In this document: positions 1,478 to 44,140 of the stretch, in pieces
Layout: every line of letters starts with the position of its first letter
Numbering within the stretch: position 1 is the stretch's first letter
Origin: a virus
Length of the DNA stretch: 64,000 bases
Strand: one strand, 5' to 3'
IMG/VR virus record: IMGVR_UViG_3300003872_000001
Location: 32,001-96,000 of that record
Program-made: the position numbers and the translations under genes
The notes under the pieces: model-generated
The model's input: the letters and a program-made list of their open reading frames with translations, nothing else
Told to the model about the DNA's origin: nothing
Databases searched by the model: none

Positions 1478-1909
1478 CCTTTTTATTCTATATGTATCGT
1501 TACTACATATACGATTAGTTGGTTTATAACATTATCTTCATAATGTAACTAATCAGCTAGTACTCTCATACTAGAGTAGACTATATCATGATCTGTTATT
1601 CAATTAGATAACAGACCCTCTACATTTCGTCTTTAAGGGGACCATACCCCACCACTTGGCGCTACTCCCGTCAGGGATAGTCGTTGAACTCACACACTCC
1701 TACTAGAGGATAGTTCTCACTATTTAAGGTGCTTCGCTGCGTCGATTACCTACATATCCTACAAGGTTTTTACGATGCCTATTGACTATATTACGTCATA
1801 GGTATTACAGTCTATTTCTAGCTGTAAGTCGTACTTGTTGGCTTTAAGGGTTCCCCGCAATTAGAAGAGTTTGCATATAATGTCACCACTATATGGGCCT
1901 AGATAAATA
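1478..1909 (-). ncRNA. Group I intron 1 (ORF-less, 432 nt) in the helicase gene
   Basis: Minus strand carries P (AAUUGCGGGGAA), Q (AAUCGACGCAGC), R (GUUCAACGACUA) and S (GAUAUAGUCU). P1 is exon GGCU paired with GGCC (U.G at the splice site), and the intron ends in G. Splicing gives RNFSSA|HKILTITNHQ. Confidence 0.92.
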
Positions 1910-3061
1910 AGCCGAGCTAAAATTCCTAACTCTATTAAATAAGTCTAGTACATCATTACCAGTTGGACCTGAAGTAACACATCCGGTTGTTGGTAACTTA
2001 TATAAGTAATCTATTAACATAGCATGGATTTCATATCCATTTGCTTCTAATTCTAATACTTTATTAAATAAAGATTTATAAGTCCACTCACTTGGGTTAA
2101 CTCTCATCATTTTAACATGATAACCATTTACACTTAATCTCTTTCTAATGTAAGATGCTACTTCAGCACCAGTAACTTTAGTTAGATCTGGTAATTCATT
2201 ATTTTCGTTATAATATAAATATCTATACATAAATTCTGTAAATACTTCACTATCATCTTCAAAACTTATATATAATATAAGTGGCTTCTTAGTCGGATCA
2301 TCTAAGGCTGGTTTATTATGCATAGCGAATTGCATAAACAAACTCTGCATAAACCCAGATTTATAATTATGTTGTAATGCTGCTATCATACACATAATGC
2401 CACGTCTGAATCCATTTTGTGTCATTTCATTAAGTTCTTTCCATCCACTTAATAGCTTACCTCCTTCAACTTTTTGGTTTTTAACTTTATTTAATACTGC
2501 ACCTAATCCATTTTCATCACCAATATCTAATTCGTCCATGATACCAGGATCCTTAGTTCTCGCTTTAAGAGATAATGCTTCTAGTGCAGTTATTAATTTT
2601 TGTGTATAAGCTGTAATGGTATCACCGTCTAATTTACCCGTTCTCATTTGATATGATGCCTTACTTATAGTAGCTTTCAGTTTCTCCTCTTTATAATAAT
2701 TATTAATAAGATTTCTAATACTAACTACTGTTCTCTTAAGGCTAGCTTGTGAAAATTCATTATCAATAGCATTTGTTACAATTTTACATAGATCTGGTTT
2801 ATTCTTAAATATTAAATTAATACTTTGTAATAAAGAAACTTTATCATAATTATCAGGATTATTTAATAGATCTAATATTAGATGTTTTAAGTCATCTTCT
2901 ACACTACCGTCACCACCTATGAACTGATTATCCCTATTGTCACTGGTAAAGACAGATAAGACTGTTCTTACTAGGTCTTTACTATCGCTAGTATCATTCT
3001 CTATTTCTTTCTCTCTATATAAAAGAGTTAACATCTTTATTAATATCTCTAGTTTAGACAT
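1910..3061 (-). CDS. DnaB-like replicative helicase (phiKZ gp118-like), exon 1
   Basis: Walker A-like ALQHNYKS, GWKELNEMTQNGFRRG, ISFED and Walker B MLIDYL. It is divergent from the capsid operon, as in phiKZ. Confidence 0.88.
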
Positions 3062-3205
3062 TTTAATTCCTTGTACTTTTACTATTTTTACTAATAAAAT
3101 AAACTATTCATACTTTTTTGTTAAACTAATTATATGTGAATATTTAAAATTAGGTAGTTATAGCGATTTATTTGAATAAAAGAATAAAACATAATAGGAG
3201 TTAAT

Positions 3206-3847
3206 ATGACGCCACTATCATCACCACTTTCAGGGACACTTTATGGTCCTGGTAAAACAGGCCGGCAATTGATATATGAAACACCAAGTGTTGTTTATAT
3301 ACCAGATTTTTTATCATCTGCATTAAATATTAATACCTTAATAGATATAGCAGGTATTGGATTTCAAATGGATAAACGTTTTTATACGTATGATAATGTG
3401 GCTAGAGAAGCTATAATAAAGATATTTAATGCTAAACTTTCTAAATATGATATTAGTAGCTTTATAAGTATAAATCAATATCTATACGAATTCATAAATA
3501 ATAGTAGACCGCACCTTATGAATAATTTAGTTGATTTTTTAACTAACGGAGAGCTTAATGACTTCCGTACTATACCTGGTAGTAATGATAAAGAATACTT
3601 AGATGTATTAAATATTCTAAAAAGTTCGAATACTATGAGTGAAAATAAAAATGACATTTATAACTTTATTCATGCAGATGGTATAATATTTGTTATTCTT
3701 CACGAAGGTTTTAGTAATTTAGTAATAGACAGTAACGATGGTCTTCAATCATTTCGGGAAGACCTACTTAATAGTATGTATAGTAATTTTAATGATGAAC
3801 AAGTTAGTTCAACTAGATTGTTCAAAACGTTCTTAAAAAATAAATAA
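3206..3847 (+). CDS. Hypothetical protein, probably virion-associated (position of phiKZ gp119)
   Basis: 213-aa ORF with an AGGAG RBS, directly upstream of the capsid gene. Confidence 0.6.
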   Translation: MTPLSSPLSGTLYGPGKTGRQLIYETPSVVYIPDFLSSALNINTLIDIAGIGFQMDKRFYTYDNVAREAIIKIFNAKLSKYDISSFISINQYLYEFINNSRPHLMNNLVDFLTNGELNDFRTIPGSNDKEYLDVLNILKSSNTMSENKNDIYNFIHADGIIFVILHEGFSNLVIDSNDGLQSFREDLLNSMYSNFNDEQVSSTRLFKTFLKNK

Positions 3848-3865
3848 AAAGTGAGGAATCAGAAT

Positions 3866-6049
3866 ATGGCTGGTAAAAAGAAAATAGTCAAGGATTTGTT
3901 AGATACTCTAACATTAAATATTGGTGACGAAGGTCTAAATAAAAGAAAAGAGTTAACAAACTTTGTAATCTCTAATGAAGATATGGATTCAGCATCACGT
4001 GAGTCAGCTACAGTTGTGCTTGATAAACTACAAGATACTGTTAGCAGAACTTTAAGCGCTGTATTGTCACAAGAAGATATGGACGCATCTCAGTTTACAG
4101 AAGCACAATTTAATGCCGCAAACCAAATCGCTGCATTGGCATTAAATCCAAAAATTGCATTAGATGCATTTCGTAACCCAAAATCTGTTGATGTTAAAGG
4201 ACCACATAGTGTAATTGGCGCTGACGTTCTAGGTGTAGAAGATATACTACTAGGTGATCAATTGTCTTCTGAAGGTTATGATGGTGAAGCTACAAACAAT
4301 GCTATATATTTTTCAATTGTATCTAACTTCATGTCAGCAACACAAGATAAATTTGGTGAAGCATTTTTCCCAACTATTAGTATGGACCCAACTGTTTCAG
4401 GTGCAACTATTGAATGTGAATTTACTTCAATTTATAAAGAAATAGCTAGAAAAACTGATGGTTCATCTAGTATGAAAGATTTCGATAAAACTCCTATCGT
4501 AAAAGCAATCTTTGATAATAAACTATTCGGTAATGATAAAAATAGACTCATTCCAGTTGTAAGAAAGAATAACAGTTCAGTGCTTTTAGCTGACGTTTAC
4601 TCATTTGTAGAGTATAATGGCTCTGAAGATGTAACTACTGCTCCTTTAGCATTTGGTAAAACTATTGGTCTACTAGGTATTTCTCAAACTGACGCACAAC
4701 TTGCTAAAGGTGTTATGGATAATACTGATGCACTAGACAGAACTCTTAACTTAGAGAATATCTATTATTCACTAACTGGTACTGACTCAGCTGGAAAAAC
4801 TGTAACTGAAAACTTTATGGCTAATATATCTATATTACCACATAGTAACTTTACTTATAGCCCACAAGCACATGCAAAATCATTAGGATTAACTTTTTCT
4901 AGCGATGCTATTGCAATAGGAACTAGTACTAAAACTACTGTAACAGGTGCAGCTTCTGCTATATTATCACAACTCCCTGCTGGTCACACTATACAAATGC
5001 AAACAGTATTACATGGTGATGGCGATACTCAATCTGGTGATATTGCTGTTTATGCTTCTGAAATGAAAGTTGCTGCAATCTTGGATTCTGCAGGTAATGT
5101 ACTACCAACAACAAGTGCTGATTATGTAACTATTGAGAAAGTAATGTCAACTGTTAAACTTCTAGGTTATACTGTTGAAGCATATAGCACTAACTCTAAC
5201 CTTAGAAAACGTGGACAGCTTGTTACAACTGACCGTTATATTCAAATTTATAATGTTCCACTAAGAACAGGTGTTACTGTACTTGCTCCAGTTAACTCTA
5301 TGTCTGGTACTGATAATGATGCAGCTAGATTAACTAGTCAAATTACATATGCTGGTATAAGAACTTCTGTTGATGCAGTTAAAGCACTTGTTAACCATGC
5401 TGATATGTTGAATAACATAACTAATAATGGTGTTCCAGTTACAGCTGATCTAATGGGTGTTGGTAGATTCTATGTTGATACATATTACAATGAACTTAAC
5501 ATCGCAATTGATACTCATGTTGATTCTATTAAATCAAAAGATAGACTTGCTGACATTAGAGCTCTTTTAGTTAACAAAATTAAAAATGAAACAGTTAATA
5601 TGGCTATTAAAGCAAATTACTATATTGCTAATGTTGTCCTTAATGGAGCTAATAATGGTAAAATACAAGTTATCATAGGTACTGACCCGATTATAGGTTC
5701 ATACTTAACTGAAAATGGCGAAGGTGTTATTGACCTAGGACCTGACTATGAAGGCATTGTTGTTACTACACCTAATAAACTTATCCGTGGTTCAATCTTT
5801 GTATCATTTGGTATATTTGATGCAAATAGAAACACTAAAGCTAACCCATTGAACTTTGGTCAATGTTTCCGATCACCATCAATCACTACTGATGTTGTAA
5901 GAACATTAAGCGGATCTACTTCACGTGAATTAACATCTATGAATAGATATCTTCATGTTATTAACCTTCCACTTATGTTTAGACTAAACATTACTGGTAT
6001 CGCTACAGCACTAGAAAAAGTTGCAGTAGATTTTCGTACTGTAAAATAA
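3866..6049 (+). CDS. Major capsid protein (phiKZ gp120-like)
   Basis: About 727 aa. Motifs QDKFGEAFFPT, TAPL, GVMDNTDALD, TNSNLRKRG, NPLNFG and YLHVINLP; S-x-E propeptide sites; highly expressed codon bias; GAGGA RBS before ATG 3866. Confidence 0.9.
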   Translation: MAGKKKIVKDLLDTLTLNIGDEGLNKRKELTNFVISNEDMDSASRESATVVLDKLQDTVSRTLSAVLSQEDMDASQFTEAQFNAANQIAALALNPKIALDAFRNPKSVDVKGPHSVIGADVLGVEDILLGDQLSSEGYDGEATNNAIYFSIVSNFMSATQDKFGEAFFPTISMDPTVSGATIECEFTSIYKEIARKTDGSSSMKDFDKTPIVKAIFDNKLFGNDKNRLIPVVRKNNSSVLLADVYSFVEYNGSEDVTTAPLAFGKTIGLLGISQTDAQLAKGVMDNTDALDRTLNLENIYYSLTGTDSAGKTVTENFMANISILPHSNFTYSPQAHAKSLGLTFSSDAIAIGTSTKTTVTGAASAILSQLPAGHTIQMQTVLHGDGDTQSGDIAVYASEMKVAAILDSAGNVLPTTSADYVTIEKVMSTVKLLGYTVEAYSTNSNLRKRGQLVTTDRYIQIYNVPLRTGVTVLAPVNSMSGTDNDAARLTSQITYAGIRTSVDAVKALVNHADMLNNITNNGVPVTADLMGVGRFYVDTYYNELNIAIDTHVDSIKSKDRLADIRALLVNKIKNETVNMAIKANYYIANVVLNGANNGKIQVIIGTDPIIGSYLTENGEGVIDLGPDYEGIVVTTPNKLIRGSIFVSFGIFDANRNTKANPLNFGQCFRSPSITTDVVRTLSGSTSRELTSMNRYLHVINLPLMFRLNITGIATALEKVAVDFRTVK

Positions 6050-6053
6050 TTAT

Positions 6054-6325
6054 CTCTTCATAGTTAGTAAAACTCTGTCCTTCAGGACAGAGATACACTA
6101 ATGTAATATTAATATCTTAAGATATAGATAACTATAACAACATAAGGAGTACCTATGCTCATACAGATGATGCAGATATCAATGCTGCTAAGAACATCCA
6201 ACATATAGGTGCTACTAGAGTGTTACAACTAGTAGTATAGCTACCAGGTACTATAGGTAGGGGACCGACCTTAGCTGCTCTTAGAGTAGTCTAGAAGCCA
6301 CCTCGTTCACGGGGTGATAGTTCAC
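6054..6325 (+). mobile_element. tnpB: Non-autonomous IS200/IS605-family element with internally deleted tnpB (copy 1)
   Basis: Left-end hairpin AAAA-CTCTGTCC-TTCA-GGACAGAG. RBS and ATG at 6155 are fused out of frame to the TnpB C-terminal motif HTDDADINAAKNIQHIG. Right end GAAGC-CACCTCG-TTCA-CGGGGTG-ATAG-TTCAC. The left boundary is approximate. Confidence 0.85.
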
Positions 6326-6382
6326 ACATTTAGTCAAGATTAATTTCTTGGCTGATTTAAAGCACTATACAACACGCACTAT

Positions 6383-6479
6383 TATAACACCAGTGGCTAA
6401 TATGCCACTGGTGTTATATGGTCTTTATATTCATTTTAAGGTACCTAGAAGACACGATCTATTCTAATGTGATGAATTA
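6383..6479 (+). repeat. ~95-bp dispersed repeat, copy A (inverted copy at 50541-50635)
   Basis: Hairpin plus a ~60-bp tail that is nearly identical to the reverse complement of 50541-50635. Confidence 0.9.
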
Positions 6480-6514
6480 TATGTATTTGACATTTAGACG
6501 TTATATGTGAGCTA

Positions 6515-6550
6515 TTGACTTTGATTCAATATCAAATATATAATATTAAT
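6515..6550 (+). promoter_or_regulatory. Putative phage promoter (TTGA..N17-18..TATAATATTAA family)
   Basis: TTGACT-N18-TATAATATTAA; related copies at 10498, 29621 and 51787. Confidence 0.55.
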
Positions 6551-6645
6551 ATAGAAGGAATGAGTAATATTAATAAAAGTGAATAACAGCTGAATTCATA
6601 TTTAATAATATTCATAACTTACTATTTAAATAAAAGAAGGCATAC

Positions 6646-8106
6646 ATGAATACATTACCGTACAATGTGAATAGTTTTGTAAGTCTAGAAAATGACCGTG
6701 AGGATAATGTATATGCGCACTATGTGCCGTATACAGAAAATGTTGGATCAGTTAGAAATAAAAATGATCTATATTTAAATTGTGATTATAAGTTAACTTT
6801 TATTAGCACTATAGGACCTGATATAAAAGTAATTCATAAGCGTAACATTGTGAGTGAGATAAGAGAAGATAGTAGTTTAAAATCTTTGATTGGATCTTAT
6901 GTTAAAGGTCTATCTGGTAAAGGGATTTATATAATTGAAACGTATACATTAAATGTCTTTAATAAAGATAAATTAGATAAAATTATTAATAATCTTGCTA
7001 ATGCCGATGGTGTAGCACTAACCTCTGATATTATTAAAGATATTTATGAGCAATATTCTAATAAGAAGCCTAAATATAGCCTAAGTATCCCGATCAATAT
7101 AAGATTTATATCCTTTGTACCAGAAGGACCACTTCGTGAATATGGATCTCTGTATGTAAGACAGTATGATATTGTTTTAACAAGTAATAGTTATGGTGCA
7201 CTACCAGAGCATCCGAACTCACAATTTAAAATAAATCTATCTCATAAGGATAGAGTTAATGGGATTCCATCAAATGTATTAACTTTAGATATTACAGATA
7301 ATGAATCTGTATTAAAAGAAACTAATGGTAGTAATAAGAAAGGTACAAATTACTTTATGAAGATTGGTAATGGTGTATATAGATTTGTATCTACTAGCGA
7401 TGGTGTAACTCCTAGTGGCGCAGTTATGGCTATTAAACATCAATATAGTGACCTACCAGAAGTAATCAATATAGATAAGGCTGATTTTGAAAAATATGGA
7501 TTATATAAGGATCGTGATTTAGCTATTTATAATGGAGATAAGAAAGGGCTACTAGAAGACAGGAAATTACAATTAGAATTAGATAAAATATCTAATGATA
7601 AAGCTAAATTACATAGAGAGATAAAAACATTAAAAGATGATAGAAAATCTTATAAAAAGGAACTCAAACTCAGGAATGATAAGTTGAACTTAGAACGAAA
7701 AAAGTTAGAGCATGAGCTTATTAAGATGGAGCATGAATTAGAGAAAATGAGGATGGATAGGCAAATGTTAAGAAAGAAAGCTGCTATGGAAATTATTTCT
7801 AATAGTTTTAAACTTCTTAGTCTGGAAATAGACATGAGTAGAGACCGACAAAAATTTCTATTAGAACAAAGTAGGTTGGATAATAAATTTAAATTGGATA
7901 ATTCATTGCTTAAAGCCAAATTTAAATTGGATAGTGATCTTACTAAATATAAGTTTAACAGGGAGGACAAGTTAGCAGAGGAGAAGTTTATCAGAGAAGA
8001 TAAAATAGCAAAGGATAAAAATCGTCGTGAAAATATTAAGAATACTTTTGACACTGTATCTAAGGCAGTTAATACTGGTATCAATATAGGAAAAGAATTT
8101 CTATAG
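6646..8106 (+). CDS. Conserved hypothetical protein with long C-terminal coiled coil (position of phiKZ gp122)
   Basis: 486-aa ORF with a K/E/L heptad-rich C-terminal third, lying between the capsid gene and the nvRNAP subunit gene. Confidence 0.65.
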   Translation: MNTLPYNVNSFVSLENDREDNVYAHYVPYTENVGSVRNKNDLYLNCDYKLTFISTIGPDIKVIHKRNIVSEIREDSSLKSLIGSYVKGLSGKGIYIIETYTLNVFNKDKLDKIINNLANADGVALTSDIIKDIYEQYSNKKPKYSLSIPINIRFISFVPEGPLREYGSLYVRQYDIVLTSNSYGALPEHPNSQFKINLSHKDRVNGIPSNVLTLDITDNESVLKETNGSNKKGTNYFMKIGNGVYRFVSTSDGVTPSGAVMAIKHQYSDLPEVINIDKADFEKYGLYKDRDLAIYNGDKKGLLEDRKLQLELDKISNDKAKLHREIKTLKDDRKSYKKELKLRNDKLNLERKKLEHELIKMEHELEKMRMDRQMLRKKAAMEIISNSFKLLSLEIDMSRDRQKFLLEQSRLDNKFKLDNSLLKAKFKLDSDLTKYKFNREDKLAEEKFIREDKIAKDKNRRENIKNTFDTVSKAVNTGINIGKEFL

Positions 8107-8124
8107 TAATAAAAAGGAAAACAT

Positions 8125-9459
8125 ATGAATGCAATTTTTGCGAAAATGATAGACGAAGTTGCACCGAAAGTTAATAAGAAGATAACTGATGGTGTTAATG
8201 CAGACATACTTAAACTATGTCCTACCTATATTAATAGCATAATTATGTCTGGTATGCGGTCTATAAATACAGATATACCATTAGTGTACCACGGGTGGCG
8301 CAGGTTGACACCTAAAGAAGAATTTGAAAAAATATATTCTGGTAAAAATAATAGAGTGAATTATGATATAGCTATAAGTTATTTATATGTTATCGAATTA
8401 AGATTTTCTTATAGAGGTGAACCAATTGTAAGACATATGTATCTTCCTTATGCCTCAGAAGGTAATATTATGAAAATATCTAGCACGCCATATAATATTG
8501 TATCTATTATGTCAGATACAGTAATATCACCAACGCATAAAAATATCTTTGTAAGATTGCATAGAGCTAAATTGATATTTGAAAAGACCGATAGAAATTT
8601 CTTATTAAATAATATTAAAACTCCAGGTCAAATTATCTATTCTGATATATACAAAACAAATAATAGGAATATTGAAGATAAGTTAGGTACTGTAGTGCCA
8701 CCCGTATGTCTTTATATATTAGGATTTTATGGACTAGTTAGATCTCTTGAAAAATATGCAAGTGTAAAAGGTGTGCAAGTATTAACAGGTGATGCTAACT
8801 ATTTAATGGAAACACATAGAGTATATGCGTCTACTAAATTAAAACCTAAAGATCTAAATGAAAGTTATTATACTGGTCATGATTTGAAAATAGCTATACC
8901 TAATGCTGCTATAGATAATAGTAATAGAGATTTTATAGATAATTTTGTATTTAGTATTATGTATACTATAGATATATTTCCAGATGATAGTGCCGATGAT
9001 TTAGTTTATGTAATCAATTCTAATGATCTAAAAAGTGAAAAGTTATTTTGGAGAGTTCTATTAGGTAAGATAGTATTTAAGAATAGTTTTTCTATAGATA
9101 AGATTATAGCTGATATTAATGATCATTTTACAACGCTTAATAGTTATATAGACGCATTACTTAAAACAAAGTTAGAAGAGTCGGGTGTGGTTATAGATAA
9201 CTTTTTTGATTTAATAGCTATCATTGTAAGTAATTATAATGGCTGGATAATCAACAGTAAACTTTATAATAGTGATCTCAATAATCGTTATATTGATGTT
9301 TTGTATTACTTAATGTACGATATAGTAATTTCTGTTAATAAAGCTTTATTCGATATTAATAGGAAATATAATAAGAATAAAAAAGATCTGTCATTTTTAG
9401 AGATAAATAAGATCTTATCAGACATTGGTCTCAGAAAAATTTTTTCGATTTTATCAGGT
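8125..9459 (+). CDS. Non-virion RNA polymerase beta-like N-terminal subunit (phiKZ gp123-like), exon 1
   Basis: LTPKEEF, YLPY, SDTVISP, IFVRL..AKL and YIDVLYYLM-type motifs plus synteny. The reading frame is interrupted by the intron. Confidence 0.8.
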
Positions 9460-9933
9460 TCGATTTTGTCTAAATAAAATAAATAAAAAAATAGGTAGTG
9501 ATATACCTTATTTAGACAAGAGCCCTTCACAGTAGCGATATTGTGATTGCATCTATCTAATTGCGGGAAATCCTTAAAGCCAACAAGTACGACTTATACA
9601 TAGAAATATAGTATAATACCTATGGAGTAATGTTTCCAATAGGCATCGTAAAAACCTTGTAGGATATGTAGGTAATCGACGCAGCGAAGCACCTTAAACA
9701 GTGAGAACTATCTACTTGATGTAGAGTGTGTGAGTTCAACGACTATCCCTGACGGGAGTAGCGCCAAGTGGTGGGGTATGATCCCCTTAAAGACGAAATG
9801 GTAGACATCTCTAGTAGATGATGATATAGTCTATTCTAGTATGAGAGTACTAGCTGATTGGTTATACTTATGACATAAAGTATTATAAATAAACCAATCG
9901 TGGTTAGAGTAACGATCTAATCAGAATACCAAG
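9460..9933 (+). ncRNA. Group I intron 2 (ORF-less, ~474 nt) in the nvRNAP subunit gene
   Basis: P at 9559-9570, Q at ~9674-9685, R at 9734-9745 and S at 9823-9832. P1 is GGU|UC paired with GAGCC. The 3' G at 9933 is placed by analogy with the other three introns and restores the frame (ILSG|GLNLCLMPG). Confidence 0.88.
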
Positions 9934-10311
9934 GGACTTAACTTATGTCTTATGCCGGGTGGCGATTCTTCACCTGATATTAAATACCCAAAAATAACTA
10001 GCGTGTTATTAGATCAGAGTAATGGCGTGGGTGTTAAAAGAGCTAAAACATCTAGCTTACCAGAAAGTATGAGGTTTATTAGAGGTACAGATCTTTATGT
10101 TGGTTCTATTCTATTCCTACTTAAGAGTTCTAATAGTCCGCGTTATAAGAAAAATATTTATATGGATTATAATGAAAATACTGGTAGGGTTATAATGTCT
10201 AATGACATGGTACATATTACAACTAAATTAGATAAATTATTAACAAGTAAAATAGGGAGAGAAATTGTTAAAATCAATGTGCTCGGAGAAGAAGAAGAAG
10301 TGGATGACTGA
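9934..10311 (+). CDS. Non-virion RNA polymerase subunit (gp123-like), exon 2
   Basis: In frame with exon 1 after intron removal (about 570 aa spliced); KITSVLLDQ and VGSILFLLKS motifs. Confidence 0.78.
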   Translation, partial: GLNLCLMPGGDSSPDIKYPKITSVLLDQSNGVGVKRAKTSSLPESMRFIRGTDLYVGSILFLLKSSNSPRYKKNIYMDYNENTGRVIMSNDMVHITTKLDKLLTSKIGREIVKINVLGEEEEVDD

Positions 10312-10492: not shown

Positions 10493-10497
10493 ATGAA

Positions 10498-10532
10498 TTG
10501 ATTCTAGAAAGAATCAAGTATATAATATTAAA
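10498..10532 (+). promoter_or_regulatory. Putative phage promoter
   Basis: TTGATT-ctagaaagaatcaagta(17)-TATAAT-ATTAAAA. Confidence 0.7.
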
Positions 10533-10578
10533 ATAGTGTGTAATGCGCAAACACATCAAATATATAAAAGGAAAAAAC

Positions 10579-11928: not shown

Positions 11929-11931
11929 TAT

Positions 11932-11961
11932 ATCACTAGTAGCATATTAGCTACTAGTGAT
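11932..11961. terminator. Palindromic hairpin (CACTAGTAGC family)
   Basis: atcactagtagc-atatta-gctactagtgat between convergent genes. Confidence 0.75.
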
Positions 11962-31103: not shown

Positions 31104-31126
31104 TCTATTAAGAAGACATAACTTGT

Positions 31127-31162: not shown

Positions 31163-31170
31163 ATCATTAG

Positions 31171-34100: not shown

Positions 34101-36567
34101 TTGCTATAGGATGTTGCTGTAATCTTTTTCCTAATTTTCTAACTTTCTTAGCTTTAGTAGCTACTGTAGTTTTCTTAAGTTCATCTATAGTCTTTTCAGC
34201 TTTAGTAGCTACTGTAGTTTTCTTAAGTTCATCTATAGTCTTTTCAGCTTTGGCTATAGTGTCATCTTTAAGCTTATTTCTACCTTCTTCGGTTTTTAGC
34301 TTAGATACAGTTTTCTTAAGTTTATCTGCTGCTTCTTCAGCTTTGGCTATAGTATCATCTTTAAGCTTATTTCTGTCTTCTTCAGTTTTTAACTTAGATA
34401 CAGTTTTCTTAAGTTTATCTGCTGCTGCTTTAGCTTTAGCCGCAGAATCTTTCTTAAACTTATCTTTCTTCTTCTTTAGACTCTCTTTAGCTTTTTCTGC
34501 AAAGCTTTTTTCTGCATTCTTTTCTGCGTCCTTTTTATTAACTTCTTCTTTATATTTATTAGCATCTTTTGCACTAACTTTACCCATTTCATCTAGCAAC
34601 ATTTCCTTATATTGCTCATTATTAAAACTTAGCTCACCGGTTTCTTTATTGGTTTTAAGTAGCCTCATGGCAGCTAATTCTTTAGCATTACCAGAATCTA
34701 TTAATTCTTGTGGTAAATCACCTAATGTAGGTAAACTTTCTTTTGCATGTTTTAAATTACTATTAGTTCTACTTAGTATATTAACATCTTCTTTTGCTTT
34801 TTTAAGCATTTTAACTACCGAAGCTAGAACTTTTTTCTTCATTTCTTTTGTAAAGTTATTTAGAAATTTCTTAGATGTTAAACTAGTAGGAGCTAATGAC
34901 CCACCGCTTAATAAATATTTAGTTACTCCTCTTCTTAGCTGTTTAACTTCTATTTCGCTAGTAAGTTTTAAGCCACCGTATTTAGTTAAATCATCCATAA
35001 ATGCATCTACATAATAGGTGGTGTCCTTAGATATTTTATTATGTATATCGGATCTAATATTTTTTTCTATTTGGGAGCTTGTAGTAAATTTATCTCTTCT
35101 ATAATCATATATTAGTTCATTAGATTCTGGTTTACCATCTTTAGTACGGATAGACTTTACTTCACCATATATCTTAGATAACAATTGAGGTATAACTTTA
35201 TTTATGCTAGACTTAGTTCTATTATCAAATATTGTACTATCTGTGAGCTTTTCTTTATTAATAGTTAATGTATTCTCTTTATCGTCTCGTGATCCCGTAA
35301 AGTTACTAGCAATACTTGCTGCCCCGTGCATCAAACGACTTTTTAATGTTTCTTTTCTATTACCATCTTTATCAGTTGTATACTCTCTTTCTTTAGATTT
35401 AATTTTATCTATATTACCGCCGATATCCATAAATGCATTTTTAGTTTTATAAATATTCTTTTTAATATTTTTATTTTCAGCTAAGCGATCACCTATAGTC
35501 GATCCTAAGAATTCTTTAATCTTGGATCCTAATAACATACCTAAGATACCGCCAGTTCCTCCGGCCATAGCAGCTGTTTCGCCAAAAGTTTCTTTTGATT
35601 CTGCAGTGTCATCTATAAGGCCCATCCCAGCTAAAGCCTGATTCTTTATATTGCTAATGCCATTAACTAGATTTCTCCTAGTATTACCAAATATATTATT
35701 TCCATTGTATAACGTTTCTGTTATTCCGCCATAAGCTTTAGATTTTAAATCGTGCTTAAGTGCTTCATTTTTATGTATCTTCACCATATCAGGAAGACCA
35801 GTATTAGTGACTATAGCGTTGAATTGATTTTTAAATCCATCCATAGCAGTAGCTAATAAATCTAATTGTTTTTGTGCTATGAATAGTGACTTATATTTTA
35901 GTTCCAAAGATCGTCTATAATAATTAGCAGTTATTTCATTATTAAACGCACGAATACTTTCTAAATTTACTGCTGCTGTATTTGCTAATTCAGTAGATGT
36001 CTTAAATCTATTTAATTCTATTTTCTTAGAAATTAATTCTTCAACTTTTTCTCGTTGAGTCTTTTCACCTAAAGTATCACCAATAGCTTCTGCTATTTTA
36101 GCTGCTTGTAATTCACTTTCAGATTTTTTACGATCTTCATTGGAATCATCATCTACACCCATCCACTTTCTGATTTTATTAGTTACAGCTGTAACTTTTT
36201 CATTTTTAGGTAATAGTCGTTCAAAACTATTAAGTGTAGTATTAGCTTTAGTTCTTATTTCAGTAGCTGCTTTTACTAATTCATCTTTAACATCTTTAGC
36301 TACATGTACTACTTCGTCTTGCTCACCTGATAATGATTTAGGTAAAGCATTTTTAGCAATAGTAGTAGCCGTTTCTAATTTATCATCCTTTATATCATCC
36401 ACGAAACTTTTAGTGCCCGACTTAAGTGTGTTAAGTACAGCTTCTCTTTTATTTTTAGCGGGAGGAGGTGTAGCGAATGGATCAAAATTATCCATACTTA
36501 ATAGATCGTCATCAAGCCCTAAATCGTCGTTATCAAAATCTAATTTATTATCTAAATCTTTAGCCAT
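31171..36567 (-). CDS. Large tail tape-measure-like protein (phiKZ gp181-like)
   Basis: 1798 aa, helical and K-rich. It has the tape-measure motif FKQGGYTG...GLVHGDETV and G/A-rich hydrophobic segments, and is divergent from the vRNAP beta' gene. Confidence 0.75.
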   Translation of the reverse strand: MAKDLDNKLDFDNDDLGLDDDLLSMDNFDPFATPPPAKNKREAVLNTLKSGTKSFVDDIKDDKLETATTIAKNALPKSLSGEQDEVVHVAKDVKDELVKAATEIRTKANTTLNSFERLLPKNEKVTAVTNKIRKWMGVDDDSNEDRKKSESELQAAKIAEAIGDTLGEKTQREKVEELISKKIELNRFKTSTELANTAAVNLESIRAFNNEITANYYRRSLELKYKSLFIAQKQLDLLATAMDGFKNQFNAIVTNTGLPDMVKIHKNEALKHDLKSKAYGGITETLYNGNNIFGNTRRNLVNGISNIKNQALAGMGLIDDTAESKETFGETAAMAGGTGGILGMLLGSKIKEFLGSTIGDRLAENKNIKKNIYKTKNAFMDIGGNIDKIKSKEREYTTDKDGNRKETLKSRLMHGAASIASNFTGSRDDKENTLTINKEKLTDSTIFDNRTKSSINKVIPQLLSKIYGEVKSIRTKDGKPESNELIYDYRRDKFTTSSQIEKNIRSDIHNKISKDTTYYVDAFMDDLTKYGGLKLTSEIEVKQLRRGVTKYLLSGGSLAPTSLTSKKFLNNFTKEMKKKVLASVVKMLKKAKEDVNILSRTNSNLKHAKESLPTLGDLPQELIDSGNAKELAAMRLLKTNKETGELSFNNEQYKEMLLDEMGKVSAKDANKYKEEVNKKDAEKNAEKSFAEKAKESLKKKKDKFKKDSAAKAKAAADKLKKTVSKLKTEEDRNKLKDDTIAKAEEAADKLKKTVSKLKTEEGRNKLKDDTIAKAEKTIDELKKTTVATKAEKTIDELKKTTVATKAKKVRKLGKRLQQHPIAKNGKIILNKMRHKPNLPNISSYEFNETEHKDAVHVSDIPKFKQGGYTGNPETKDDIVGLVHGDETVINSKKLDKVSGLFNKLMGKHKVPKRPELIDTLINNAEHFIDKERTTEDSMYNKTKTFTTKKFNNISAAASKIDLNSFSVRDKIYLSQAVIKNSDMVFSTKKRIMSILDEMKDYNEQLSVKHKSAINEVLHYVEIKEYTKALKAYAILAKDIHLDMAKDGYDKVKDNLNPLDAANKTKEKLLDITSKYLHVDLREYKKLKEEFYNSEAYKKGIVKNISEYAEGLGLHIPKKLIKDDILDNKTSIKTGKFAKIKSLVTGIHRTDLDREAASLLKKGITGLFHTLNPLYKKEQKIKEENELFDQNKDGTRDGNWKVRLKNWNKSKKSETKKTSNDTTKDSGSKESTLKEGLVGAGGVILGGAAGLLSKLSPFHKKETQAQKDAKIFDTDKDGRRDGNWRDELKSWNKHTKGAAKESLHKLGKGFTSKGIPGLVLAAMGIAVAGLKKLLWGGLKHIPGLLKNIGKNILKLPFKLGGLLKKFMPGLLGGVVKAVKGVGSTVIGAGVGAVKLAGKGISAVGKYASKTLLGTERAEKIGKTFSKVGEEALKVGEKISKSGVASKIIDILRSFKTKILEKLGEKAGAELVGELSAKIAARLVPFVGWSLLLWDAGWIIKYMVVDKLSLKSAVSKQILGFDLFSKDSAPVNAEGQPIKPTIKVKYPKKNDKNKTHIGVKHTATDKLTPANNNIPSTVKHISIKPGLGDKTSRSKLIPANNNTNNSILNTVKSNHAIGSTVGYKLGSNIFNNPSDYKSAYSQFAKKQNTTKATNHIIKSDNALSTDRDLPNDKIAKINSNNAAIVGVVTSQPKKRIVPTKHYQPVPQDINKPLNDLHMVSQDSNKLLANMDNNIGYTVNIQLKILELLTKMESDKKNNTNAVSDVISSVFDTTPKQQIEHRRTEFPKPTIDISKHTNFAS
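34150..34430 (-). repeat. In-frame tandem repeats (2 x 93 bp, 2 x 48 bp) in the tape-measure gene
   Basis: AADKLKKTVSKLKTEE.RNKLKDDTIAKAE twice and KTIDELKKTTVATKA twice, near-identical at DNA level. Confidence 0.9.
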
Positions 36568-36693
36568 AATATTTTCCTTGATTAATCTTACGACTACTAT
36601 ATAGTCTTCAGTTATAGTCGTTCATTCAAAAAAATGAATGAGCCACTAGTTTAATCACAGTATCCTATATAATAGTTAATTCAAGGAGATGTT

Positions 36694-38139
36694 ATGGACC
36701 CGTTTAATATAGAATTATTATTTTTAAATAAAAATAATTTAAAGCAATTAGGACAAGTAAAAAGTCTTGATATATTTGAGCCTAATACAGATATATTTAA
36801 AATAGATGGATTATTCTCACAGGAAATATTTGGACCTGTTGGATCAGAGATACGTACTATGAAATATGGTTATATAGATCTTAAACTTAAGATCATGCAC
36901 CCACTGGCATTTAGATCACTTATACAATTAAAAACATTATACAGCGACATTGCATCTGGTAAAAAATACGCAATATTTGATGAAGAACTTGGTGACTTTA
37001 CTTTATCTAACCCTATAGATGGAAAAACAGGTTATGACTTTTTTTATAACCATATATTTAAACTTAAATTACTTGCTAATAATAGTGACAGTAGAAGTTT
37101 TAAAATAGAATTGATAAAGAAGTATTATAGTGTACCTAGTCAAGTACATACTTTAACTAAATGGTTAGTGTACCCAGCCGGATTAAGAGACTATAGTTTA
37201 GATAAAGATGGTAGAGGTAGTTATGATGAAGTAAATGATATTTATAAGAAGCTATTATCTACTGCCAATATGCTTAATAATACAACTATAGACAGTAATA
37301 ATTTAAGAATGTTCAATACTATACGATATAAGCTACAAGGTATAACTTTAGAAATTTATGAGTATTTTGAAAATTTACTTAAAGGTAAAAAGAAATTCCT
37401 ACAAAATAAATGGACAAAAAGAGCTATCGTTTATGGTACGCGAAATGTTATTACAGCTACACCTATCGTTATAGATGATGTTAATAATAAAAATAAAATA
37501 TCTTTTAATAATACTGTTATAGGGTTATACCAATATTTAGAAGCAGCTAACCCTATAGTTAAGCATCAAGTATTGAAAATGTTTTCTCATAAGATATTCA
37601 ATCCTGATACTAATACAGCTCCGTTAGTAAACATTAAAACTATGCAAACAACATTAGTGGACATAAGTAGCAAAAGTAGAGACGATTGGCTATCGGAAGA
37701 GTACTTAGATAATACTATAGCTAAAATGGGACAAGAGTTCTATAGAAGTGAACCTATTTTAGTAGAAGATAATTATTTAATGTTAATATACGATGACGGG
37801 AAGTACGTAGAACTGATCTTTAATACTGGTGAAATGGATAGTAGTTTAAATAAGAAATATCTTAGACCTATTACATATGCAGAATTATTTTATCTTGCTA
37901 TATATGAGATTCGTAATAAATATCCAGGCCTTATAACAAGATACCCAGTTACTGAAGAGGGATCTATATACCCAACTATCCCTTATGTAAAAACTACTAA
38001 TATTAGTAGGACAGTTAAAATGAAGTACTATGGAGAAATGATTGACGTGTATGAGTATCCTATTCTAAGCGAAAATTATTTTAACTCACTAAGTGTACAT
38101 AGTACACACTTAGGTCACCTTGGAGCTGACTTTGATGGT
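36694..38139 (+). CDS. Virion RNA polymerase beta' subunit (phiKZ gp180-like), exon 1
   Basis: DGLFSQEIFGPVG, PAGLRD, GKKKFLQ.KW..R....GTRNVIT and ITRYP motifs; ends LGADFDG. Confidence 0.92.
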
Positions 38140-40126
38140 ACAGTCGTAGAATAGTTTCCGTAGATATTAAAAAGTAAGAGATTTACTGCACTTAGAAGCT
38201 TTTATATTACTAAAAAAGCTTACTACCTTATTTATTGATAGTATAAAATAAATAAGGATTTAACATGAGTAATCTCAGATTCGATGTAGTCGGTAACAAC
38301 GACTATTATATAACAGAACATTTAGAAATTGGTAAAAATAATGAAAAAGCTAGAAATCTTGTATTCGATAAAGATAAAGTTTTTATAACATTATTTGGTT
38401 ATAGACACAAGGTAAAATTAGAATGGCTTTATTGGTTAAGCTACTATAAACTAAATTTACCGAATAATTATGAAAGATATATTAGTGATATTAGATTTTA
38501 TAGTTTAAGCAGAGATGGTAGAACTCTTACCGATGACCATATAGTTTTATTTAAAAAGCCTGTTATAATAAAATATGGCTCTACTGTGTTTAGATTATTG
38601 GCAAGATTTCCTAATTACGCTATATCTAAAGACGGAACTATTATGAACATGAAAACTAAGTTCTTTAAAAAGCCTAGTAGTAATGAAAAAAATAGATATT
38701 TAAGATCTAATATTATTGATCAAGCTGGACTTTATTCTAGTAACACTAGAGTCACACATAGATTAGTAGCACTAGCATGGGTTCCCAATCCTAATAACGA
38801 TTTTATAGCTAGACCTATAGTAGATCACATAGATGGTAATAAAACTAACTGTCATGCCGATAACTTAAGATGGATATCGTTTTTAGGTAATAGTTTAGCA
38901 GCAGTAGATCAAGGTCTCAATACTATAGCGATACCGGTACTTAGTAAAAATATAGATACGGGTGAGGTAGAAAAATGGGGATCTTTAACCAGGTTCACTG
39001 AAGCCAAAGGTAGGACGAGAATAGATACTAATGCAGCTCCATTATATAAGTCTAAAGTATGGAAAACTCCTAATGGCGATTATTTACTTAAGTACTTAAG
39101 TGATTCCACACCTTGGGCTAATAGTGAAGATATTAAAAACAATACCAATACTAAATTAACTATAATTATTAAAGATAAAACATTCACTATACATGGTCGT
39201 AACTCTTTGAAAGATTTTGCCAAGAAAGAATTTGATATAATTATACATGGTAAACAAAGTATAAATAAATCTATAAAACAATTCTTAGATAGATACATAG
39301 CTAAATATGATAATAATATAAAAATAATCATAGATAGACCTAAATACCAAAATGATTTAAATAAAATATTATATAAAGCTAAGAATTTAGTAACTGGTGA
39401 AGTGTTAATAAATAAAACTAGAAAAGAGTTATTAGAATATACCGGTATACCAAAATCATCTATAACTAAAAGCATAGCTAATACTGGATTATATTCTTAC
39501 AATGATTGGGTGTTTACTACTATGTATATAGACTTTCCTAAAGAGAAAGATGTTAAATTTGTTAAATATAATTATAAAATAAAAGTAACCAATACAAAAA
39601 CCAATAAATCTGTTATATATGATAGCTTAAGAAAAGCTTCTAGTGAATTAGACATACCTAGAAGAAAACTTAAAGCTATATTGAATAATACTAATAATAT
39701 CTTTAGTGGACATATATTCACTATGATATAAGTGCCCGTTGTAGAAGTAATTCTATAATGACAACCAAGCTAATTGCGGGAAGCCACTAAAGCTTATAAC
39801 TACCACTTATAGATGGAAACATACTATAATACTCCAGCCGTAATAGAGGAACTAGGAGCATGGTAAAAACGTTATAAGATGTATATGGGTAATCAGCGCA
39901 GCGAAGCACCTTAAACAGCGAGAGCTATCCTGTATGGAGTGTGTGTGTTCAACGACTAACGGATTGATCACCGTGTAGGGCTCAAGTGAGTGGGTATAGA
40001 ATCCCTTAAATCGAAATGCTGGGAACCTATCTATAAGGTTCTTGATATAGTCTCGTCATGCAGGGAAAGCCTGCAGCAGTTCATAAGAGAACGCGGTCAG
40101 TGTAACGAACTGATTGGAAGGTTTCG
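38140..40126 (+). mobile_element. Group I intron 3 (1987 nt) carrying an HNH endonuclease gene and splitting the DFDG|D catalytic motif
   Basis: P at ~39772, R at ~39947 and S at ~40043. P1 is GGU|AC paired with GUGCC at ~39733, and the intron ends in G40126. Exon joining gives GADFDG|DVVSFN. Confidence 0.93.
38265..39731 (+). CDS. Intron-encoded HNH homing endonuclease
   Basis: PNYAISKDG and THRLVALAWVPNP...VDHIDGNKTNCHADNLRW motifs, with a C-terminal NUMOD1-like YDSLRKASSELDI. Confidence 0.9.
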   Translation: MSNLRFDVVGNNDYYITEHLEIGKNNEKARNLVFDKDKVFITLFGYRHKVKLEWLYWLSYYKLNLPNNYERYISDIRFYSLSRDGRTLTDDHIVLFKKPVIIKYGSTVFRLLARFPNYAISKDGTIMNMKTKFFKKPSSNEKNRYLRSNIIDQAGLYSSNTRVTHRLVALAWVPNPNNDFIARPIVDHIDGNKTNCHADNLRWISFLGNSLAAVDQGLNTIAIPVLSKNIDTGEVEKWGSLTRFTEAKGRTRIDTNAAPLYKSKVWKTPNGDYLLKYLSDSTPWANSEDIKNNTNTKLTIIIKDKTFTIHGRNSLKDFAKKEFDIIIHGKQSINKSIKQFLDRYIAKYDNNIKIIIDRPKYQNDLNKILYKAKNLVTGEVLINKTRKELLEYTGIPKSSITKSIANTGLYSYNDWVFTTMYIDFPKEKDVKFVKYNYKIKVTNTKTNKSVIYDSLRKASSELDIPRRKLKAILNNTNNIFSGHIFTMI

Positions 40127-40285
40127 GACGTGGTTTCATTTAACCTTCTCTATACTGATGAAAGTATAGCTGAAATAAATAAACTACTTAAAAATAAAAA
40201 ATTTTATCTAACAGGTAATAATGACCTGATGTACCGAGTGAGTACAGATCCATTAGAGCTAGTATTAAAACATTTAACTTTTTAA
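40127..40285 (+). CDS. Virion RNAP beta' subunit, exon 2 (absent from the ORF track)
   Basis: DVVSFNLLYTDESIAEINKLL...LELVLKHLTF*, 52 aa. It supplies the third catalytic Asp; the spliced product is 534 aa. Confidence 0.9.
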   Translation, partial: DVVSFNLLYTDESIAEINKLLKNKKFYLTGNNDLMYRVSTDPLELVLKHLTF

Positions 40286-40300
40286 AGGAATACTATAGTA

Positions 40301-40549
40301 ATGAAAGAAATGAAGATATATTTAGAAAAAGATTCAAAACATAGAACTAGACGAACTAAATATCGTGATGTAGCTGACCAAGGTACAGTTATAGGCGATA
40401 TTGATGAGGGACAAGTATTTTTATGTGGTACTAGAATAGCCGCTAATCAAATGGTTTGGCGTATACCATTCGCATGGAGATATGATATTTATGATATATA
40501 TTATGAAGGTAATATACCAGTTATCGAATTTACACAAATTAAGGAATAA
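40301..40549 (+). CDS. Small hypothetical protein
   Basis: 82-aa ORF between the two vRNAP genes. Confidence 0.55.
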   Translation: MKEMKIYLEKDSKHRTRRTKYRDVADQGTVIGDIDEGQVFLCGTRIAANQMVWRIPFAWRYDIYDIYYEGNIPVIEFTQIKE

Positions 40550-40551
40550 TA

Positions 40552-43500
40552 ATGAATTTCAATGAATTTTATAAAAAATATGGTAATAGACGTAGTACAA
40601 GTCTTATAGAGCCTAAAACTGTAGATAACGATAGTTTTAAATTTCCTAGAAATAGTATCTTGCAATGGGTTATGGTATCTGATGTAGTGGTTCCTATGAC
40701 TACAGATTATGGATATTTACATAATGAAAAGTTGCCAGTGGTAACTACACCATTAAAGTATAGTAAAGATATTGATCTCGTAGGAACTCCTATACAAAAA
40801 CCTATAGTTGTCGCTAGAATAATGAAAGAGTTAAAATCTAATGAACCTACATTTAAATTTTTAAAACCTAATATTAAATCTATAAAAGTACCTAATACTA
40901 AATTATTCATTTTTAATTATGGAGTAGTAGGTGCAAGTTATAGATATAGTATAGATCCACTTAATGACTATTACAAATATGTTAATACGATGAAAACTAT
41001 TCTATATAACAGCAGCATAGCTAATATGGGCGATGGTAGACATCAATTTATACTTATTGATTTACCATTATCTATACCAAACCGTATGGTTCTAGATAGG
41101 TTTTTAACTAAAATGACTAAAGTAGGATTAGAACATTTTAGTACTTATAAACATTTGATTATGTTAGAATTATGGAAATTCCTATCACCTGATACAGAAT
41201 CACTATTTGATGTACTATCATTAGCCGATTATAAAAATATAACTTTAATGTTTAATAGTAACGGCAAAGTGTCATTCCTTAATTTAAATTTATTATTAAG
41301 TTTATCTAAGGATAGACCTGATGTAGTTACAGGATTAAATAAGGTTCCTTCTGAAACTTTAAAGAAAATGTTTTATGTATTTATTACTAAATTATCAAAT
41401 GTAGTTAATATTCCCGATGCTGCTATTAAAAAAACAAATGAGTTAATGAACAGTGTGGTAGGTAGTAATAATATGCAATTAGAAGAAAATGAAGAACATT
41501 TAGACTCTAAGAATATAGATAAAGCATTATCAGAAGAACTAGATGATATACCAGATAGTGATAGTATTGACGATATGGTTACTGATTCTGAGATAGAAAA
41601 AATATCAGAAACTGCTATGACAACCTATGATACAAAAAAAGAACTATTAGACACTAAAGATAATCCTAAAGCAGAGCTAACTAAGAAATTAGATTTATTA
41701 AAGAAACATAAAGTTATTTCTAAAACAAAATTTGATAATTTACATACAGCACTTGCTAATCAAACTAAAATGACAATAGATTTACCAGGTAAAGGTGAAA
41801 CAAAACTTACTGATCTTTTAACTATATCTGATAAAGATTTAACGTTAACTAATAAAGAAATAGAATTACCTGCAGCTAAATCAGTATTAGATCCAACTAT
41901 GAATAAAAATGTAACATCAGTTATGATTTCTAAATATATTGAAAATAAATATTATAAAGATATGACTAGAAGTTTATTCGGATTACAAAAGGCTGGTGTA
42001 ATTATTAATAGTTATAAAATAGAGTCAGGTGCGAATATATTAGGTGAATTTCAAATCCATACAATAGAAGTTGTATTATTAGATGGTAGTAAAAGTAAAC
42101 TAACATTTAAATTACCTACTATTTCTAAAGATGGTTCTTTTAAAATGAGTACTCATTCTTATTATATGCGTATGCAGAAAGTAGACAAGGTTATAGTTAA
42201 AGTAGGCTTTAACAAAGTTAATCTTAATACATACTATGGTAAATTATCTGTGACTAAAGCTACATTTAAAAAAGATGATGCCGGATATGTCTTTAGGAAT
42301 AAGTTATTAAAATTATCAGAGATTAATAAAGAACTAACTAATATAGGACTATTAGATAATATCAAAATGGATCAAACTTTACCTATTGCTTATACTACTA
42401 TTTCTCGTTATGTAAAAAAGTTTACACTAGGTAATCTCAATTATAATTTTGATTATGATAATAGAGATAAATTACTACCTAAGATTAAGTTAGACTCTAT
42501 TGAAAAAAATAAAATTTTAGTAGGTGTAACTAATGACGGGAAGCCACTATTGATGGATAATGATGGTGTGGTTTATTTAAACAATAAACCTATAGGTACA
42601 ATATTGCACCAATTAGGCCTTAAACAAAATGCATTACCAATAGAGTATGCTAATTTAAGGATTCTTAAAAAACAAATACCACTAGTTACTATACTCAGTT
42701 ATTATATAGGCTTACAATCACTGTTCAAAATACTTAACACTAAATTTACTAAACATCAAGTTAAAGAAAAAATTACATTAGATCCTAATCAGTATGTAGT
42801 ATTATTTAAAGATGTTAAGTTAATCATTGAAAGAGACTATGGTCTAAGTGATATGATTATAGCTGGACTAGTTAGTATAAAAAATATTACAAGAAATATT
42901 AATTTTTCAGTTATGACAAATAAAGATAACTTTAGCATACTCTTCAATATGATGGAGTTAAGTATAACTTATATTAATGAGATTAAACTTTTAGAGACAA
43001 TGTATATAGATCCTATGAGTGAAAATGTACTTAAAAGTATGCATGAACCAATTGTCTTTAAAGCACTATTGATAAGAGCTGCTGAATTGCTTTTAACGGA
43101 TGATTATATAAATCCAAATGATGTAACTAACATATTGGTAAAAGGTTATGAACGCATTCCTGGTATGGTTTATAATGAATTAGTACGGGCTATGAAAGAG
43201 CATGCAAATGCATCAATCTTTGGCAAAAGTAGATTACAGATTAACCCTTACTCAGTATGGGCAACTATAGGCTCTGATAGTACAACTGTATTGATAGATG
43301 ATCTCAACCCAGTAGCTGAAATAAAACAATTTGAAGATGTATCAGCATTAGGTAAATTTGGTAGAATAAAAGAAACATTCACTAAGGATACCCGTAGTAT
43401 TGATGAATCAGAAATAGGACTATTTTCAGAAGCAGTTAAAGATAGTGGTGATGTGGGTATAACTGCATATTTATCAGGTGCACCTACATTTAAAAATATA

Positions 43501-43606
43501 TTAGGAGAAGTTAATAAATTTGACTGGAAAGAAGATGGAATGACTTCTATTTTATCTACTCCGGGATTACTGACTCCATTTACAATAACTGATGATGCAA
43601 AAAGAT
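40552..43606 (+). CDS. Virion RNA polymerase beta subunit (phiKZ gp178-like), exon 1
   Basis: FYKKYG.R, DGSF......YMR.QK.D, KGYERIPG, DDLNP and SEA.KDSGDVG motifs; ends DDAKR. Confidence 0.9.
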
Positions 43607-44140
43607 CAACAGACATCCTATAAGAGAGTTATATTTCTTATAAGAATGTGATATGTAGATAATAAATAATATAGAATATTTTGAAATATCAGGATATTCC
43701 AATAATATAAAAAAGATTCTAATAAATTTATTTATTATCACACATATCGTTTAGGTCCAGATTTACAGTAATGTAAATTGGTTATCTTTCTAATTGCGGG
43801 GAATCCTTAAAGTCTATAGATACTACTTACATATGGAAACATGATGTAATACTCACTTCAGTAATGGAGATAGTGAGCATAGTAAAAACTCTATAGAATA
43901 TGACAATAGGCAACCGGCGCAGCGAAGTCTCTACGTGACTCAGTCATACGAGATGTGTTCAACGACTATCCCTGTAACGGGAGTAGGGCTCAAGTGAGTG
44001 GGTATGAAATCCCTTAAATCGAAATGTTAGACACCCTATCATTATAAATGAGGGTGAAGATATAGTCTCGACATGCAGGGAAAGCCTGCAGCAGTTCATA
44101 AGAGAACGCGGTCAGTGTAACGAACTGATCGGAAGATACG
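43607..44140 (+). ncRNA. Group I intron 4 (ORF-less, 534 nt) in the vRNAP beta gene
   Basis: P at ~43792, R at ~43957 and S at ~44059. P1 is GAU|C paired with GGUC, and the intron ends in G44140. Splicing gives DDAKRS-NFSTIMASHAIP. Confidence 0.92.

Follow-up and report, generated by a model that had tools for sequence, protein, structure and literature searches.

The window analysed here, a 64,000-nucleotide (nt) stretch corresponding to bases 32001-96000 of one 107,322-bp virus record (IMGVR_UViG_3300003872_000001), holds four group I introns, I1 to I4, each in a different essential gene: a DnaB-like helicase (I1, 1478..1909, minus strand), a subunit of the non-virion RNA polymerase type (nvRNAP; I2, 9460..9933, plus strand), and the beta' (I3, 38140..40126, plus strand) and beta (I4, 43607..44140, plus strand) subunits of the virion RNA polymerase (vRNAP). 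The gene order is phiKZ-like (Chimalliviridae-type), with genes for the major head protein, a virion structural protein and the tail fibre followed by vRNAP beta' and beta, and we take the source to be an uncultured phiKZ-like (Chimalliviridae-like) jumbo phage. When 10-11 kb stretches were compared with 50,697 phage records by megablast, no match was returned, and the closest isolates are related at the protein level only, with 25-42% identity (Bacillus phage AgentSmith (40%), Goslar, RSL2 and others). The four introns are members of a large modular family that moves among related phages and occupies many sites in essential genes. We think it likely that they are self-splicing relatives that circulate family-wide, that I2 arose ectopically from an I1-like copy, and that I3 and I4 have exchanged a 3' domain.

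Each predicted junction restores a protein that is colinear with uninterrupted homologues. The helicase (PF20307, 6.8e-67; phrog_3213, 2.3e-97) is encoded on the minus strand by exon 1 (1910..3061; 384 codons, ending in ...RNFSSA) and exon 2 (1112..1477; phrog_3213 positions 409-501), and its junction, SSA|HKIL, aligns without a gap to the uninterrupted AgentSmith helicase. The nvRNAP-type subunit (phrog_2943, 4.5e-65), whose tblastn matches are annotated as non-virion RNA polymerase (RNAP) subunit or polymerase, is encoded on the plus strand by exon 1 (8125..9459; 445 codons) and exon 2 (9934..10311); its junction, SILSG|GLNL, is unbroken in the homologues of L018, L014 and AgentSmith. In vRNAP beta' (phrog_2986, 1.7e-148) the intron lies within the catalytic DFDGD motif: exon 1 (36694..38139, plus strand) ends in ...GADFDG, and the first of the 52 codons of exon 2 (40127..40285, plus strand) supplies the third Asp, giving GADFDG|DVVSF. 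The spliced product of 534 amino acids aligns to its end with RSL2 ORF038, and the open reading frame (ORF) at 40301-40549 is a separate gene outside exon 2, which corrects an earlier note on this DNA. vRNAP beta (phrog_3148, 1.5e-203) aligns with RSL2 ORF037 and Goslar gp207 across exon 1 (40552..43606, plus strand), which ends in ...DDAKR plus 1 nt, and continues in exon 2 (44141..45240, plus strand; phrog_3148 positions 1062-1420), placing the DDAKR|S junction in phase 1. This site is backed by an allelic intron in the phage genome G002. A candidate I4 junction directly after DD (the site used in phage PhiPA3) is in frame, but was rejected on reading the alignments, as the intron would end in C and the conserved KR would be lost.

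The inserts have the architecture of group I ribozymes. Scores against the Rfam model RF00028, which has a curated cut-off of 50 bits, were 84.3 bits for I1 (1557-1919, minus strand), 75.5 bits for I2 (9499-9853, plus strand), 74.6 bits for I4 (43726-44091, plus strand) and 49.1 bits (E 1.4e-11) for the I3 core (39710-40076, plus strand). A scan of 38000-40700 missed I3 and a scan of the whole window missed both I2 and I3, which scans of narrower ranges found; I3 escaped the wider scans because a 488-amino-acid HNH/NUMOD1 ORF separates its 5' splice site from its guide sequence. In all four introns the 5' exon ends in U and the intron in G, P1 comprises 4-6 bp with a U.G wobble, and the guide lies 32-34 nt upstream of the J3/4-P4 motif. 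Thus, I1 (432 nt, no ORF) pairs GGCU|UA with UAGGCC across a tiny loop L1, I2 (474 nt, no ORF) pairs GGU|UC with GAGCC and closes L1 with a 12-bp stem, I3 (1987 nt) pairs GGU|AC with GUGCC, and I4 (534 nt, no ORF) pairs GAU|C with GGUC. The guide positions therefore place the HNH gene of I3 (38265..39731, plus strand; 488 amino acids; PF13392 1.4e-6, NUMOD1 0.008, phrog_59 2.6e-25) in L1. I3 alone among the four encodes a homing endonuclease (HNH_3 plus NUMOD1, phrog_59), and a check of neighbouring ORFs turned up no free-standing endonuclease. Two covarying hairpins, P7.1 and P7.2, lie between GTTCAACGACTA and CGAAATG in all four introns, pointing to subgroup IA introns with P7.1/P7.2 and an extended P9 region, for which the narrower label IA2 is tentative.

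The L1 loops differ widely in content. AT-rich inserts measure 57 nt in I2 and about 145 nt in I4, and there is almost none in I1. The I4 insert (positions 43607-43755) repeats the last 8 nt of the 5' exon (AAAAAGAT) about 110 nt into the intron and contains several AT-rich palindromes; it may be the debris of a lost ORF. In the related genome G001, a homologue of the I3 HNH protein with 29% identity lies upstream of a family intron. The beta' intron of G003 (L024, reverse complement, 93-900) has another ORF in L1, Cys/His-rich and unlike the I3 HNH, and the same loop therefore hosts different endonuclease genes across phages.

A natural intron-less allele exists for the nvRNAP gene. In a second sample of the same study, a DNA contig at about a quarter of the main depth links position 9452 to 9933 through GAGCGG (six substituted letters) and encodes the same ILSGGLN, with synonymous changes at the site. 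No comparable joint was seen at the I1 site in the contigs compared with the window. An uninterrupted database protein (P0002, 90% identity) matches the predicted I2 junction exactly; a second database protein (P0003, 86% identity) ends in the same read-through, SILSK, and its gene therefore carries the same intron as I2. Because jumbo-phage RNAP genes are naturally divided into several polypeptides (PMC7598289), one might suppose that the genes here are truly split or decaying, with inserts that do not splice and fragments that act as separate subunits or survive as pseudogenes. We consider this highly improbable: the protein read from the intron-less allele is that of the predicted spliced gene, beta' exon 2 starts with the third catalytic Asp of DFDGD, and the inserts have intact, covarying core helices and high Rfam scores. 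The earlier note had placed four introns at these coordinates, named the same four host genes and given each 5' exon a matching guide. The RF00028 scores, colinear junctions and intron-less I2 allele uphold the first of these claims, the profile matches agree with the second, and the P1 pairings bear out the third in all four cases.

The four copies are a small sample of their family. A 19-nt P6 motif matched 11 loci in 7 IMG/VR contigs, and when five of those records were scanned with RF00028, 16 matches passed E<=0.001, of which a 138-kb fragment held 6 and an 80-kb fragment 5. Another eighteen full-length members, from IMG/VR fragments, can be aligned to I1-I4 over the entire ribozyme, and related metagenomic jumbo-phage fragments hold at least 20 further family copies. 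The consensus fold of 21 members has 57 pairs, of which 47 show compensatory changes, including P3, P6, P7.1, P7.2, P8 and the terminal hairpin. Uncultured relatives were the sole source of close family members (70-80% identity over about 400 nt). More remote similarity links the 3' half of I4 to introns of AR9/PBS1 (7-10 places per record), PhiPA3, staphylococcal phages (lysK, RNAP) and Vibrio phage BONAISHI. Searched with a family hidden Markov model (HMM) at thresholds as loose as E 10, the 107-kb contig yielded only these four copies. One family does occupy the four genes, as the earlier note held, but its picture of colonisation within a single genome is too narrow, given the larger family and the occupation of three of the sites elsewhere.

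Occupancy of the four sites differs markedly among related phages. At the helicase site (residue 384), 27 of the 120 best homologues (95% to 45% identity) stop at ...RNFxS[AS] followed by a few read-through residues, and the I1 site is therefore old and widespread; in G004 it is empty, and a family intron lies near residue 225 of the helicase instead. In beta', three insertion points fall within 9 nt of DFDGD: the Goslar site at GAT|TTC, that of G003 and of G005 intron A 1 nt beyond it, and that of I3 and of G005 intron B after GGT. In beta, G002 has an intron at exactly the I4 site and phase, with the guide UGGUCU. Thus, the I3 site is occupied in G005 and the I4 site in G002, and both are empty in RSL2 and Goslar. 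An intron at the I2 site (nvRNAP residue 445) was seen only in this genome and in P0003; none of 14 IMG/VR loci has one. Presence or absence is accordingly polymorphic for I2 (the joint in the second sample; P0002 versus P0003) and for I1 (27/120 occupied), and likewise for I3 and I4. Other phages have introns at the helicase 384, beta' DFDG|D and beta DDxKR sites as well, so that ordinary homing can account for those three arrivals.

The surveyed genes hold further insertion points. Truncated homologues of the nvRNAP-type subunit (P0013-P0103; L018, L014, L041) form at least four classes, ending near residues 428, 445, 456 and 473, an apparent intron hot-spot of about 50 codons in which sites 445 and 473 are the ones confirmed in DNA. 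In G005 beta' (L016 4835-5635, IMG/VR 3300003873_000117), two family introns stand back to back inside the ADxDG motif with an 8-nt exon, ATGACGGT, between them. Four relatives have one to three family introns in a gene of 712 amino acids that is intact here (genome 7088-9223, upstream of the window). The interruption lies near residue 406 in L008, L015/L017/L021, L009 and L010, and in G004 the gene holds a pair of introns spaced by about 1.2 kb, and no residue of the exon sequence is lost between the two.

I1 and I2 are each other's nearest relatives, with 81% identity compared with at most 73% to any other copy, and form a 100/99 clade in the tree of the 5' half. They share an exact 58-mer that occurs exactly twice and is not expected by chance, as well as a run of 52 identical family-polymorphic sites (permutation p<=5e-5). 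By segment, they are nearest to one another in P4-P5 (76/90), P5'-P4' (42/42), P7.1 (16/16), P7.2 (31/32) and the 3' domain (73/102); their P1-P2 and P8 are unrelated. Their guides differ in a compensatory way, at intron position +2 and its guide partner. The near-identity in unrelated genes to which the earlier note had drawn attention is therefore well founded. Among proteins of a sister phage, P0109 (95%) is a helicase that apparently has the intron, and P0002 (90%) is the product of an uninterrupted nvRNAP gene; both proteins have the same 20,527-bp contig as their longest, and the two presumably lie together on it. A sister phage with the helicase intron and an uninterrupted nvRNAP gene makes I2 probably the younger copy, and the rare, polymorphic I2 site would fit recent ectopic spread. 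The more specific proposal that the pair captures an intron soon after an ectopic jump, with the helicase site seeding the nvRNAP site, a few substitutions refitting the guide, and the new copy still gaining ground on an intron-less allele within one community, is in our judgement unlikely in that full form. Exact-pattern scans of IMG/VR for I1/I2-specific stretches found no match. A likeness between the 5' exons of I1 and I2 (ATTTTA..C..GG..T), examined as a shared endonuclease target, was too weak in this AT-rich genome.

How such a copy might reach a non-allelic site bears on the reverse splicing that the earlier note gave as an example. That note held that homing moves introns only between allelic sites, an overstatement, since endonucleases of relaxed specificity are another recognised route (PMC3984707). 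Here the copy may have travelled by reverse splicing, through such an endonuclease or by illegitimate recombination. In the RNA-based version, an excised intron would reverse-splice into a transcript at a 4-6-nt guide match, followed by reverse transcription, recombination and retuning of the guide. The short P1 pairings of 4-6 bp suit this, as do the compensatory change between I1 and I2 at intron +2 and its guide partner, the GGUC guide core shared by I4 and the independent G002 intron at the same site, and the fact that three of the four introns lack an endonuclease. Yet no reverse transcriptase was seen near the introns, the present guide of I1 would not pair with the I2 site, and DNA-level illegitimate recombination or relaxed endonuclease specificity would leave the same picture in the sequence. 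The literature contains no direct evidence for reverse splicing as a route in bacteria or phages (PMC3984707). We regard an RNA step as rather unlikely. The earlier note's wider claim of ectopic transposition and/or gene conversion fares better: spread outside allelic sites must have happened, with reverse splicing as one candidate route.

I3 and I4 are related in another way. Their 3' domains are identical at 64 of 71 positions, where the next best match is 35/80, and share an exact 41-mer that occurs exactly twice, is not expected by chance and lies in a domain unique to the pair; a run of 55 identical sites (p<=5e-5) marks the same relationship, which the earlier note had recognised. Between the two introns, identity rises from 0.73 in the 5' core to 0.93 in the 3' domain (Fisher p 3e-4), opposite in direction to the family median difference of -0.15. 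Two co-resident introns of G002 repeat the pattern (0.64 in the 5' core versus 0.93 in the 3' domain). By contrast, the P4-P5 arm of I3 is nearer to introns of other phages (76/93 and 74/93) than to I4 (64/93) or its other genome-mates (64-65/93). The recombination-breakpoint test that the earlier note had proposed returned discordant similarity: in a 3SEQ-like test, I3 is V159/G001/tanA-like in its 5' part and I4-like in its 3' part (p<=5e-5), and in reciprocal approximately unbiased (AU) tests, each region's tree is rejected on the other region's data (p 0.0025). These patterns fit exchange of the 3' domain between co-resident introns, and the occurrence of such a common domain in two genomes suggests that it may be a separately exchangeable module. 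Exact-pattern IMG/VR scans for the I3/I4 3' domain gave no match.

The mosaic that the earlier note drew between the two pairs does not hold up. It gave I3 the P6 of I1 and I2; this is the commonest form in the family, and the P6 of I3 is closer to that of other phages (38/40) than to I1 (34/42) or I2 (32/44), with no significant run. Likewise, the P7.1 of I4, said to be that of I1 and I2, is the form seen most often in the family (15/18, compared with 14/18 and 13/18 elsewhere) and is no better matched than by chance among family members. That the P6 and P7.1 forms taken as exchanged are family-wide lends some weight to a rival history, in which all four introns arrived separately by allelic homing from co-infecting phages and resemble each other through a shared family pool, with no movement or exchange inside the genome. 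Occupation of the I1, I3 and I4 sites in other phages points the same way, as does the 5' half of I3, which is closest to introns of other phages (76/93 and 74/93 versus 64-65/93 for genome-mates). Against it stand the I1/I2 pair, whose members sit in unrelated genes yet are closest to each other and share 58 nt exactly; the I3/I4 3' domain, unique to that pair; and G002, in which co-resident introns share a 3' domain to the same extent (0.64 versus 0.93). The allelic introns seen in other phages are, moreover, far less similar. We assign this history a low probability. The survey of site occupancy that the earlier note had proposed shows three of the sites occupied elsewhere, and nvRNAP site 445 only here and in P0003.

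Several observations weigh against our preferred reading of family-wide circulation, an ectopic origin of I2 and a 3'-domain exchange between I3 and I4. The allelic helicase introns used in the comparison come from distant phages only, with 33-59% protein identity, and the direction from I1 to I2 is read from occupancy patterns. In AU tests on the 5' half by itself, an I3+I4 clade is not rejected (p 0.50), because I4 forms a long branch there, and neither are clades of I1+I2+I3 and of all four introns (p 0.35-0.50). The recombination tests partly reflect the alignment of non-homologous module types. I3 and I4 may instead be sister introns in which the 5' half of I4 evolved fast and P6 was replaced. 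The I3 core falls 0.9 bits under the RF00028 cut-off, with the 5' strand of its P1 1.6 kb away, and the four introns are functional-looking, self-splicing by prediction from their sequences.

On the reading that we favour, I1 would be the resident of an old, widely occupied helicase site, and I2 a recent paralogue of an I1-like intron that inserted ectopically into the rarely occupied nvRNAP site, its guide changing to fit. I2 would then have spread by recombination among close relatives and would still be segregating against the intron-less allele. I3, which splits the catalytic DFDG|D motif and alone carries a homing endonuclease, probably came to its site by homing, as I4 probably did to its own, because both sites are occupied elsewhere. 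I4, 3.5 kb downstream of I3, may later have exchanged or co-inherited its 3' domain, by recombination or gene conversion between co-resident copies, and the 5' halves of the two introns would have different histories.

Several intron sets in phages and in nuclear genomes resemble this one. Twort is an intron-rich phage genome, and in multi-intron phages such as Bacillus AR9/PBS1, Staphylococcus Twort/K, Jug and crAss-like phages, several related group I introns likewise occupy different essential genes of one phage; their identity to the introns described here is confined to the core (about 70-78% over about 150 nt). T4 td, nrdB and sunY similarly hold homologous subgroup-IA introns in different genes of one phage. 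Bryk and Belfort reportedly found in 1990 that T4 intron domains can be shuffled, with recombination between shared intron segments producing chimeras. In T4 the exchange was reportedly observed in crosses; here it is read from natural sequences, whose common tracts exceed those of T4 in length and similarity (58 and 41 nt exact). The mean for Jug phages is 18.5 introns per genome (PMC12880540).

A close parallel in an RNAP gene is PhiPA3 gp210, in which an HNH-bearing group I intron lies in a vRNAP gene of a nucleus-forming jumbo phage (PMC11620839). There, as here, a group I intron with an HNH gene interrupts a virion RNAP gene of a phiKZ-like phage at a catalytic motif, and the 3' half of the PhiPA3 intron aligns with I4 (70.8% over about 170 nt). 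The PhiPA3 intron lies in beta, right after the conserved DD, whereas I4, which has no ORF, is inserted 10 nt downstream of that point (DDAKR+1), and the HNH-bearing intron here is in beta', at DFDG|D. Nuclear ribosomal DNA group I introns, by comparison, are thought to have spread by reverse splicing, and related introns at different sites are the circumstantial evidence for it (PMC1299323). In both cases close relatives at different sites are read as ectopic movement, by a mechanism that is equally unproven, but the hosts here are protein-coding phage genes, with no rRNA target.

The set is a new, well-resolved example of a known phenomenon and reveals no new element type; phage genomes with many introns, and introns in the RNAP genes of jumbo phages, have already been described. 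Its interest lies in offering a clean, bounded natural data set on how group I introns reach new sites, a question on which ectopic movement has only circumstantial support. It combines a close paralogue pair in unrelated essential genes, with retuned guides and a segregating empty site; co-resident introns with one domain in common; and a family that uses several insertion points a few nucleotides apart in RNAP catalytic motifs. Should the jump between I1 and I2 have gone through RNA, the pair would be the best natural test case for the long-proposed, never demonstrated reverse-splicing route. For annotation, the helicase and three RNAP genes of such phages will be mis-called as truncated unless the introns are removed.

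Two other places in the window stand out. Intergenic repeats at 6001-6420 and 10498-10535 have about five-fold contig depth, with assembly joints connecting both places, and a 272-bp stretch within the first (6054-6325) is missing from the second sample. The ORF-free stretch 52400-52530 has no P3-P7 core and no match to the family HMM; it resembles the layout of the introns from P7.2 to the 3' domain, with CAGTTCATAAAGAGAACGG followed by a hairpin with a GTAACGA loop, and probably represents a relic of a fifth family member or a 3' module standing alone.

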